Positions 22,131 to 22,464 of a DNA stretch of 32,000 bases are shown one piece after another. The first letter of the stretch is position 1; the number at the start of each line of letters is the position of its first letter. Position numbers and translations under genes: made by a program. The stretch covers positions 90,001-122,000 of the forward strand of contig JBAZRV010000004.1 of the NCBI GenBank assembly GCA_041662745.1. The letters run 5' to 3'. Source of the stretch: Patescibacteria group bacterium. GTDB taxonomy: Bacteria; Patescibacteriota; Patescibacteriia; 2-01-FULL-39-33. Under the pieces are notes generated by a model. The model saw nothing but the letters and a program-made list of their open reading frames with translations, had not been told where the DNA came from and searched no databases.

Positions 22131-22204
22131 AGCGGCGAAAGGGATTCGAACCCTCGACCTCTTCCTTGGCAAGGAAGCGTTCTAGCCAACTGAACTACCG
22201 CCGC
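22131..22204 (-). tRNA. tRNA-Gly (anticodon GCC), 74 nt
   Basis: Reverse complement is GCGGCGGTAGTTCAGTTGGCTAGAACGCTTCCTTGCCAAGGAAGAGGTCGAGGGTTCGAATCCCTTTCGCCGCT. Confidence 0.95.
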
Positions 22205-22228
22205 ACAATAAAATATAAAGTAACTTTT

Positions 22229-22397
22229 CCGCCACAGAGGTCGACCAAAGGTCGTTCCGGGGCAGCGCTGAATGCTCCTGATGGTCGCATTCATCGGCAC
22301 TCGATTTCGCTTTCAGCTCATCTCGTTGCTGCCCGTTCAGATTACTGAACCCTCTTCCTTGGCAAGGAAGCGTTCTAGCCAACTGAACTACCGCCGC
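22229..22397 (-). ncRNA. tRNA-Gly(GCC)-like 5' domain fused to the same structured RNA (family copy 3)
   Basis: Positions 22397-22351 are identical to the first 47 nt of tRNA-Gly. Positions 22350-22253 are collinear with the Lys-locus element, with 12 differences in 82 nt. A terminal hairpin cgacc-ttt-ggtcg follows. No recognisable T-arm or acceptor 3' strand. Confidence 0.7.
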
Positions 22398-22435
22398 ACA
22401 AATACCAATCAAATACGACTAAAACGAACATCGGT

Positions 22436-22464
22436 ATTTTAACAAAAAATATCGCCTAAGTCAA
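22436..22464 (-). promoter_or_regulatory. Sigma70-type promoter of the tRNA-like/tRNA-Gly/tRNA-Leu cluster
   Basis: The minus strand reads TTGACT (22464-22459), a 17-nt spacer, then TAAAAT (22441-22436). This places it about 39 nt upstream of the tRNA-like 5' end at 22397. Confidence 0.6.

Follow-up and report, generated by a model that had tools for sequence, protein, structure and literature searches.

Putative small structured insertion elements in tRNA genes and operons of a Patescibacteria clade

The stretch of DNA analysed here (the window; 32,000 nt of a Patescibacteria group bacterium, candidate phyla radiation, assembly GCA_041662745.1, contig JBAZRV010000004.1, positions 90,001 to 122,000) carries, ahead of its tRNA-Gly(GCC) gene, a block composed of a copy of the tRNA 5' part and a structured insert. 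Comparable units precede the tRNA-Lys(CUU) and tRNA-Arg(UCG) genes, so that three of the five tRNA genes detected by ARAGORN and by Rfam at gathering thresholds have such a unit. The evidence leans somewhat towards a family of small insertion elements, non-coding and highly structured, that have settled in the tRNA genes and operons of one Patescibacteria clade; each has a core of ~80-100 nt and flanking hairpins. On the best reading, the element is non-autonomous and targets tRNA genes, and the gene is restored by partial duplication.

The tRNA-Gly unit and its filled and empty sites

The tRNA-Gly unit is located on the minus strand behind a sigma-70-type promoter, TTGACT-N17-TAAAAT, that the initial annotation had predicted and that was recovered at the same position (Table 1). 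Its conservation in the related loci L042 and L043 (comparison loci are cited here by L numbers) marks it as the native promoter of the tRNA-Gly/tRNA-Leu operon, which would now drive the element first. A leader follows as had been described, with a length of 38 nt instead of ~39 nt. The 47 nt reported as identical to tRNA-Gly were confirmed, and the identity includes the preceding TTGT (51/51); this sequence is a displaced or duplicated tRNA-Gly fragment. The conserved insert, 98 nt in total (22350-22253), consists of a 16-nt hairpin and an 82-nt core. The suggested relationship with a copy on the opposite strand was also borne out: the Gly and Lys inserts are 85-86% identical, their 82-nt cores differ at 12 positions, and the arms 22253-22337 and 18684-18768 are 86% complementary. 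Judging by sequence, the Gly insert is an inverted-orientation copy of the insert linked to tRNA-Lys. The terminal hairpin exists, and the spacer behind it, previously given as 24 nt, measures 37 nt with the hairpin as called here.

The first hairpin of the insert stands in the T-arm position and has a 4-nt loop, as opposed to the 7-nt loop of a T arm. Since the hairpin occupies the place of the T arm, the fragment together with it (22327-22397, (-)) comes near the tRNA threshold (RF00005, 27.7 bits, gathering threshold 29); ARAGORN makes no call. No T-arm or acceptor 3' remnant was detected past the Gly core by local alignment against the tRNA 3' part (score 10; 1538 of 2000 shuffles were as good), in line with what had been noted, whereas the Lys copy retains a decayed T-arm remnant (score 22; 0/2000). 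The corresponding region of the Arg copy gave a score of 17, which was equalled in 188 of 2000 shuffles and is not significant.

Comparison of orthologous loci, proposed in the initial annotation as a check, did reveal presence/absence polymorphism. In L042, which comes from a 958-kb contig of another species (PilT 97% identical in amino acids; neighbouring genes 82-88% identical in DNA to the window), the PilT gene adjoins the Gly/Leu cluster as it does in the window (22481-23503, (-)), and the same promoter and leader run straight into an identical tRNA-Gly without any Gly unit. Relative to L042, the window has exactly 193 extra bp at this site, namely 142 new bp and a 51-bp direct repeat. 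The Lys site of L042 is likewise empty, with GAAAGATTTC between promoter and tRNA-Lys. L042 does possess the Arg unit, whose fragment matches the tRNA-Arg of that locus at 100% identity. The Gly site is empty in L006 too (PilT 75%). In L043 (PilT 96%), a different member of the family (72 bits) is inserted in the D-loop of the same tRNA-Gly: the repeat extends from -10 to +19 (29-30 nt), the tRNA sequence is taken up again for 11 nt past the insert, and then come a hairpin, filler and the intact gene. Gain or loss affects the element as one discrete block, and the tRNA-Gly gene has been struck twice independently, at different positions, in sister lineages. These sites support the suggestion of a duplicative insertion that leaves an intact tRNA beside the disrupted one.

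The three units of the window share a common order: a few leader bases and a copy of the 5' two-thirds of the tRNA, a hairpin, a core of ~82-93 nt, and a second hairpin with A/T-rich filler. The repeats cover positions -4 to +47 (Gly), -10 to +46 (Lys) and -2 to +53 (Arg), all of them 5' parts of the tRNA, and each matches its own host tRNA despite the ~85% identity of the Lys and Gly cores; the repeats are therefore derived from the target and not borne by the element. The fragments differ from the tRNAs by three A>G and one C>T changes (Lys) and by C>A, G>A and C>T (Arg), with no difference for Gly. The perfect Gly repeat suggests a young event; the four mismatches of the Lys repeat suggest an older one, whose counterpart was possibly lost in L042. 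The Lys fragment is devoid of the D-loop G18/G19 and of one anticodon-stem pair, as expected for a pseudogene, and together with its hairpin (18624-18707, (+)) it scores only 20.6 bits as a tRNA, below the 29-bit threshold, with no ARAGORN call.

As for the insertion points, they lie in tRNA loops (D-loop, variable loop) or in the T-arm, at 19/20, 46/47 and ~53-57. Every surviving arrangement has an intact tRNA adjacent to the element, and part of the gene is present twice.

The possibility that the tandem partial tRNA copies are a chimera of misassembled repeats had been raised from the start. Short-read contigs of relatives do often end beside these tRNAs (L125, L126, L148, L150). A second, MEGAHIT-style assembly from another sample record (European Nucleotide Archive ERZ27249449, k141_570234; L122/L124) is 99.96-100% identical over window positions 15264-32000, the three units included, and this base-for-base reproduction in an independent assembly rules out misassembly for practical purposes. 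The Arg unit is also present in the 958-kb contig of another species, and the repeats of 51-56 nt are shorter than reads. An artefact thus has next to no probability.

Table 1. Features of the tRNA-linked units of the window and loci of the second insert type
Feature	Position	Strand	Remarks
Gly: sigma-70-type promoter, TTGACT-17-TAAAAT	22464-22436	(-)	10/12 matches plus extended TG; conserved in L042 and L043
Gly: native leader, 38 nt	22435-22398	(-)	joins tRNA-Gly directly in L042
Gly: direct repeat copy 1, TTGT plus tRNA-Gly 1-47 (acceptor 5' strand, D arm, anticodon arm)	22401-22351	(-)	51/51 identity to 22158-22208
Gly: insert 5' hairpin GTTCAG-TAAT-CTGAAC, 16 nt, in place of the T arm	22350-22335	(-)	minimum free energy (MFE) fold
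Gly: conserved core, 82 nt, three-way junction	22334-22253	(-)	MFE fold, covariance models, covariation
Gly: 3' hairpin CGACC-TTT-GGTCG	22254-22242	(-)	no U-tract after it; not a terminator in the scan
Gly: A/T-rich filler between insert and repeat copy 2	22241-22209	(-)	no detectable similarity to the tRNA-Gly 3' part
Gly: repeat copy 2, TTGT plus first 47 nt of intact tRNA-Gly	22208-22158	(-)	51/51 identity
Intact tRNA-Gly(GCC)	22204-22131	(-)	ARAGORN, Rfam; identical sequence in L042, L043, L006
tRNA-Leu(UAA), second gene of the operon	22045-21962	(-)	ARAGORN, Rfam
Lys: promoter	18582-18610	(+)	
Lys: unit ahead of tRNA-Lys(CUU)	18614-18801	(+)	paralogous to the Gly unit
Lys: repeat copy 1, -10 to +46, 56 nt	18614-18669	(+)	52/56 identical
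Lys: 5' hairpin	18670-18686	(+)	
Lys: core	18687-18768	(+)	
Lys: decayed tRNA-Lys T-arm remnant, then short A-rich filler	18767-18787	(+)	local alignment score 22, 0/2000 shuffles as good
Intact tRNA-Lys(CUU)	18812-18884	(+)	
Arg: unit ahead of tRNA-Arg(UCG), more divergent member	18936-19167	(+)	
Arg: repeat copy 1, -2 to +53, 55 nt	18936-18990	(+)	52/55 identical
Arg: 5' hairpin	18989-19001	(+)	
Arg: core	19003-19095	(+)	covariance model
Arg: 3' hairpin, then A/T-rich filler	19102-19123	(+)	
Intact tRNA-Arg(UCG)	19170-19241	(+)	
Second insert type, L057	9172-9333	(-)	
Second insert type, L060	1300-1625		
Second insert type, L095	2383-2726	(-)	
Second insert type, L093	9306-9470		

The conserved core and its distribution

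The insert is a structured RNA family without an Rfam counterpart. The Gly core comprises a closing helix P1 (GGGCAGC/GCUGCCC), the junction strand J1/2 (AACGAG), P2 with a GA/GAA internal loop, CGAG, P3 (GAAUGC/GCAUUC) and the tail CCGGAACG, and the MFE folds of all three window units show the same architecture. In general form, the shared fold contains P1, a junction strand whose last bases are (A)G[C/U]GAG, P2 with the k-turn-like GA/GAA loop, a second CGAG, P3, the 3' strand of P1 and C(C)NGG(A)ACG.

A covariance model built from the Lys and Gly cores (R1) recovered five further members in relatives, and a second model built from the resulting seven (R2) was searched on ~825 kb of Patescibacteria DNA. 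The Gly core scores 111.5 bits with R1 and 85.2 bits with R2. Nine loci were matched by R2, namely the seven well-scoring members and two weaker Arg copies; no other match in the 825 kb was better than E = 1.5. The Arg core of the window joins the family by the covariance model only (R2, 27.5 bits, E = 0.003), and its L042 orthologue scores 29.5 bits. All nine matches adjoin tRNA genes and are on the tRNA strand. From this orientation bias and the position of the promoter we infer that the tRNA strand is the functional (sense) strand; counts of G-U versus C-A pairs could not inform on the strand, as too few pairs in the seven-sequence alignment are informative.

In that alignment, which was fitted to the model and so favours structure, 98.1% of cells are in standard pairs, and 12 of the 16 modelled pairs are changed on both sides. 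No main covariation measure was reached in any of 500 shuffles, and sliding the partners by 1-3 columns reduced pairing to 25-43%. Covariation of P1 is visible by eye (GGGCAG/CUGCCC, GGUCAG/CUGACC, GGUAGC/GCUACC, GAUAGC/GCUAUC). The P3 sequences are entirely different among members, still paired, and the junction nucleotides are invariant.

Searches for known relatives gave no counterpart. Rfam 15 at gathering thresholds finds only the five tRNAs in the window and nothing in the inserts, and at E up to 10 over 18500-22600 there is a single chance-level match in an insert (the S10-Clostridia leader at 19.2 bits and E = 1.2, where the cut-off is 35.1 bits). Manual comparison with hammerhead, twister, C/D-box and T-box RNAs showed loose resemblance only, and these identities were dropped. 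A hand-written descriptor was unspecific (34 matches versus 32 in shuffles), and covariance models were used instead. BLASTN comparison of the Gly insert with phage and plasmid collections gave no match; DNA-pattern scans of viral contigs gave chance matches only, which were either rejected by the covariance model or consisted of a single coding-region match with no tRNA nearby. No description of such an element was found in a full-text literature search.

The core also occurs in other positions relative to tRNA genes. In L055, the order is the mirror image of that in the window: intact tRNA-Ile, A/T-rich filler, core, a 3' fragment of tRNA-Ile (56-76 plus 3 nt) and tRNA-Val. In L002 and L046, the core lies after tRNA-Lys and its terminator and before tRNA-Arg, and the L046 copy borders directly on 13 nt from the variable loop and T stem of tRNA-Lys. 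The core follows the last tRNA of the operon in L045, and L051 and L052 have the Lys and Arg tRNAs 16 nt apart with no element. Because the core is found downstream of tRNAs or between them as well, it is not an obligatory leader.

In L045 and L055, a perfect antisense of the T-loop/T-stem 3' strand of the neighbouring tRNA (13 and 10 nt, respectively) immediately precedes the core on its 5' side; in the window copies, the place of this stretch is taken by short self-contained hairpins. The idea that this segment is a guide to the T-arm fits L045, L055 and an unrelated insert of L006 and fails for the window copies, L043, L002 and L046, and it was kept as a minority hypothesis.

Nature and possible origin of the element

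The element lies between the native promoter and the tRNA gene, and the scan found no sense-strand terminator-like site and no extra promoter between promoter and tRNA in any of the three units, which implies transcription together with the tRNA. The whole unit would then be a long 5' leader of the tRNA promoter transcript, which RNase P may remove at +1 of the intact tRNA, making the site tolerant; a tRNA operon would offer the element a safe and highly expressed niche. The three-way junction may serve as a cis-acting module that an enzyme encoded elsewhere would recognise, either in its RNA form or as folded single-stranded DNA. The duplication could arise in the insertion event itself or be the only outcome to survive selection where the tRNA gene is single-copy, as each such gene appears to be in this genome. 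Once formed, the direct repeats would allow precise loss, and the flanking tRNA homology would let recombination carry the element from strain to strain. A possible route is template switching where heavily transcribed tRNA genes are broken. The duplication comprises a segment of the tRNA, and the element lies within the first of its two copies.

Several points weigh against an insertion element. The 20 window ORFs scanned yielded no integrase, transposase or reverse transcriptase, and neither did the gene calls of L122, which extend over the remainder of the window and ~9.6 kb past its right end. The element has no terminal inverted repeats and no target duplication of fixed length (repeats 29-56 nt), and a simple staggered-cut duplication was rejected, as in the Lys copy, L043 and the tRNA-Ile of L057 the tRNA sequence continues past the insert. 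The comparison loci are a biased sample, all anchored on PilT beside tRNA clusters, and seven genomes carry the core. A scan of genome contigs with the overly specific pattern GCGAANTCGAGN{3,5}GATGAATGC gave 34 loci in unrelated phyla, none beside a tRNA, which are chance matches. Gain cannot be proven over loss, because direct repeats permit precise deletion, and the empty sites could be secondary. Finally, the Arg unit differs between the window and L042 at ~6 of ~158 positions while the adjacent upstream spacer is full of substitutions and indels; such conservation argues for purifying selection, i.e. a host function, or for recent or continuing exchange, and not for inert selfish DNA.

This last point bears on the main rival, which we hold to be unlikely: an RNA of tRNA operons beneficial to the host, whether a leader or spacer that insulates processing or folding, a small stable RNA set free by RNase P/Z, or a regulator of tRNA output that binds a ligand or protein, spread by duplication and kept by selection. 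Such a role would suit the location between native promoter and tRNA with no terminator, the constant placement on the tRNA strand, the strongly covarying three-way junction with its invariant nucleotides and the ~96-98% conservation of the Arg unit between species whose genes are 82-88% identical; moreover, two of the three substitutions in the Arg fragment of the window strengthen an alternative hairpin in the predicted fold. However, the Gly and Lys units are dispensable, as close relatives with identical tRNAs do without them, the position varies from upstream of the tRNA to between tRNAs and to after the last tRNA behind a terminator, and the tRNA fragments decay and differ in extent. There is also no conserved expression platform (terminator/antiterminator pair) and no Rfam riboswitch or leader match. 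The dedicated leader RNA for tRNA operons proposed in the initial annotation keeps its promoter-proximal location, the missing terminator and the conserved Arg copy in its favour; it is not needed to account for the data, and the L045 member after the last tRNA does not suit an obligatory leader role. The features of an attenuating riboswitch or T-box-like leader are likewise missing: the three units have no terminator, their 3' hairpins differ in sequence and distance, and some members are downstream of the last tRNA.

Among mobile elements, large integrative elements have tRNA genes as classic landing pads. The tRNA-targeting islands, prophages and cis-mobilizable elements (CIMEs) use a tyrosine integrase and a fixed attP, are kilobases long and replace the 3' part of the tRNA. 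The element described here resembles them in its insertion inside a tRNA gene (often the T-loop or anticodon loop), in function kept by a doubled segment, in repeats that permit excision and in tandem accretion (L095). It differs in that the 5' part is duplicated in the window, matching three host tRNAs, and in that the block is of 130-190 bp, non-coding and built on a three-way-junction core. Duplication of the 3' part is absent from the window and occurs in some relatives (L055, L057, L093, L095); neither an integrase nor a fixed attP was found among the window ORFs and neighbours scanned, and the repeats vary with the host tRNA. The 5'-side duplication that matches three tRNAs means that the integrase/attP model fails for the window copies. 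The hint at tRNA-directed integrases given in the initial annotation therefore gains no support, also in view of the varied insertion points (D-loop, variable loop, T-arm).

A broader version of this explanation has no dedicated element at all. The units would be recombination scars, either integrase leftovers (attL/attR, CIME-like) or products of ectopic or illegitimate recombination and template switching between tRNAs sharing the GGTTCGAATCC T-loop, and the core would be carried passively. The many junctions at or beside the T-loop GTTC are consistent with this, as are the tandem units of L095, the inverted T-arm pieces beside some cores, the fragments of another allele than the intact tRNA beside them (Arg(CCG) in L052, the outer Arg fragments in L055 and L081), and the inversion, in L002, L045, L051 and L052, of a segment whose end points are at elements. 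It is nevertheless improbable: an integrase would double the 3' part around a fixed attP and not 5' parts matched to three host tRNAs around related cores, the scanned ORFs and gene calls contain no integrase, and passive carriage leaves unexplained both the conserved fold with its compensatory changes and the recurrence of one core family at five kinds of tRNA (Lys, Arg, Gly, Ile, and Arg/Lys in other genomes).

MITEs (miniature inverted-repeat transposable elements) have terminal inverted repeats and a short fixed target duplication, and IS200/IS605 elements make no target duplication. With MITEs and the IS200/IS605-derived palindrome-associated transposable elements (PATEs), the family shares small size, lack of autonomy, multiple copies, presence/absence polymorphism, hairpins near both ends and, presumably, mobilisation in trans. 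Those families, in contrast, are not restricted to tRNA genes and have no covarying three-way junction with conserved junction bases. The 142-nt Gly insert begins GTTCAG... and ends ...TATATTTTA, two sequences that do not form inverted repeats, and the flanking repeats measure 51, 55 and 56 nt, or 29-30 nt in L043. As for PATE features, hairpins flank the core in all window copies and several junctions may be placed just behind T-loop GTTC or GGTT; each copy is accompanied by a long duplication, and no TnpA/TnpB gene was seen.

Structured RNAs interrupting stable-RNA genes are also known. Group I introns occur in anticodon loops of bacterial tRNAs, and archaea have non-canonical introns, split and permuted tRNAs, with introns mobile between tRNA genes in Thermoproteales. 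The likeness consists in a structured RNA that interrupts a tRNA at a loop, including non-anticodon positions, and in the nested or flanking pieces of L055 and L081. The difference is that here the 3' exon is missing (Gly, Arg) or decayed (Lys), so that no tRNA could be spliced, and a separate intact copy supplies the function. In addition, the insertions are after 46/47 or in the T-arm or D-loop, the core has 82-97 nt and three helices, and there is no RF00028 match. Intervening sequences in rRNA, many of which are found in candidate-phyla-radiation bacteria, leave a fragmented rRNA functional, and many encode proteins. They resemble the present element as structured extra RNA at loops of stable-RNA genes, sporadic among close relatives, transcribed and removed by processing, and differ in being located in rRNA and needing no restoring duplication. 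The tRNA-derived short interspersed nuclear elements have a similar composition (tRNA-related head, conserved body, A/T-rich 3' region, flanking repeats of variable length); here the head is an exact copy of the neighbouring gene and itself the flanking repeat, the bacterium has no partner resembling a long interspersed nuclear element, and the filler switches sides in mirror copies. A poly(A)-like tail was rejected, as the filler lies 5' of the core in these arrangements. A diversity-generating retroelement was rejected too, since the mismatches are not adenine-specific and no reverse transcriptase was found among the window ORFs scanned.

The loop positions and the copied RNA segments may also be explained at the RNA level, by a parasitic ribozyme or retroelement RNA that attacks exposed loops of tRNA or pre-tRNA and returns by reverse transcription and recombination. 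This would account for repeat ends near transcript ends: 2-4 nt separate the beginning of the Lys repeat from the predicted transcription start, and the L093 repeat spans the terminator hairpin. The insertion points 19/20, 46/47 and ~53-57 are all in single-stranded loops, the fillers are A/T-rich, and the antisense T-arm stretches of L045 and L055 resemble a guide next to a scaffold. We consider such a parasite quite improbable, because no known ribozyme or intron family was matched even at E up to 10, no reverse transcriptase was present among the scanned ORFs and gene calls, the Gly and Arg repeats do not begin at the transcription start, the window copies have no antisense pieces, and the position of the filler in mirror arrangements is not that of a poly(A)-like tail.

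Taken against the known systems, the element lacks at least one tested defining feature of each of five families, i.e. integrative elements/CIMEs, MITEs, group I tRNA introns, diversity-generating retroelements and attenuating leaders. It is best classed with mobile DNA that resides in tRNA genes and keeps the gene intact through duplication, and there is a modest chance of a categorically new mechanism. One specific form of it, for which the chance is slim, would make the core the scaffold of a new RNA-based or folded-single-stranded-DNA-based mobile element that recognises exposed loops of tRNAs or tRNA genes and builds its own rescue tRNA, guided in some copies (L045, L055) by a target-complementary segment 5' of the scaffold; it would be a self-contained parasite of tRNA genes, unrelated in mechanism to integrases, classical transposases and known introns.

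If the family is indeed a mobile one, a non-coding, structure-conserved element of 100-200 bp that occupies a tRNA niche and leaves a working gene would represent a new parasitism of essential stable-RNA genes, and this in genomes of ~1 Mb with almost no room for selfish DNA. It would be a concrete source of the tRNA fragments, split-looking or nested tRNAs and inter-cluster inversions of candidate-phyla-radiation bacteria and would explain assembly breaks at these loci. Should the three-way junction be catalytic, guide-bearing or ligand-binding, it would be a new class of RNA, covarying and absent from Rfam; if it instead serves the host in expressing tRNA operons, it would be the first leader RNA of its kind dedicated to such operons.

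Other rearrangements at tRNA genes and neighbouring observations

Further insertions and duplications were detected when every predicted tRNA was compared with its own flanks by BLASTN and the matches were inspected. A second, CGAG-rich type of insert, which model R2 does not detect, follows tRNA-Arg in L057, L060 and L095 and has behind it 17-31 nt copied from the tRNA 3' end, beginning in the T-loop right after GGTTC (Table 1). L095 has two tandem 171-nt units, and in the tRNA-Lys case of L093 a 60-nt repeat runs through the terminator hairpin. In L057 (~2600-2680, (-)), an uninterrupted 42-nt GC-rich hairpin is found within a 5' fragment of tRNA-Ile. The same hairpin, as halves of an imperfect GC-rich inverted repeat (CCTGCCCGCC... 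/ ...GGCAGGCGGG), separates an intact tRNA-Arg(UCG) from outer 5' and 3' fragments of a different tRNA-Arg allele, between which it is nested, in L055 (9124-9310) and L081 (6025-6150). In L052 (530-610), the intact tRNA-Arg(CCG) gene is preceded, at a distance of 27 nt, by a bare 5' fragment (1-48) of this tRNA whose acceptor stem differs. In L006/L047 (4105-4215), an 81-nt insert after tRNA-Arg(UCU) lies between 14 nt of the T-arm copied in inverted orientation and 18 nt of the tRNA 3' end copied in direct orientation.

At a larger scale, the segment from Lys/Arg to Gly/Leu (window 18600-22400) is inverted in L002/L044, L045, L051 and L052, where Lys/Arg comes after PilT, as Gly/Leu does in the window and L042. 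The end points of the inversion coincide with the positions of the inverted Lys and Gly elements in the window. The tRNA genes of these small genomes are hot spots of insertion, partial duplication and recombination, and the core family is their best-defined passenger.

The short-read contigs that end beside these tRNA clusters (L125, L126, L148, L150), which belong to the window's organism and its relatives, do so within ~60-260 nt of them. Repeated fragments and elements apparently break assemblies, and such loci may be under-represented in metagenome-assembled genomes. In L048 (9155-9733), ~580 bp with small ORFs separate tRNA-Lys and tRNA-Arg, where others have 16-64 nt or a structured element.

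The block of tRNA-Gly, an 85-nt spacer and tRNA-Leu (window 21962-22208; L042 9102-9348) is 99.6% identical in the two genomes, as compared with 82-88% for the neighbouring genes. Such similarity points to tRNA regions exchanged recently or to a strongly constrained spacer, and exchange of whole tRNA regions is plausible given the identity of the spacer.

The AT-rich island that had been noted beside the locus (21.05-21.96 kb) deviates in the expected direction and only mildly, with a GC content of 0.42 versus ~0.46. It holds an ORF of 174 aa (21304-21828, (-)) directly downstream of tRNA-Leu, with its own strong promoter (21927-21900). As a candidate for the cognate enzyme this ORF was rejected: it has no match in Pfam, NCBIfam, PADLOC or PDB sequences and looks kinase-like by eye, not nuclease- or recombinase-like, with a pattern HxDxxxxN ... 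DYG reminiscent of a small protein-kinase-like fold. Its homologue in L042 (11357-11863, (-)) is located between an SPFH gene and tRNA-Arg, so that the gene has moved between two tRNA-adjacent positions.

The other scanned ORFs and annotated neighbours are housekeeping genes or have no family match, and the gene calls of L002, L004 and L006 include no recombinase either. A 607-aa ORF without a Pfam match (15363-17186, (-)) contains, at 15330-15545, five tandem 36-nt repeats with 67-100% identity.

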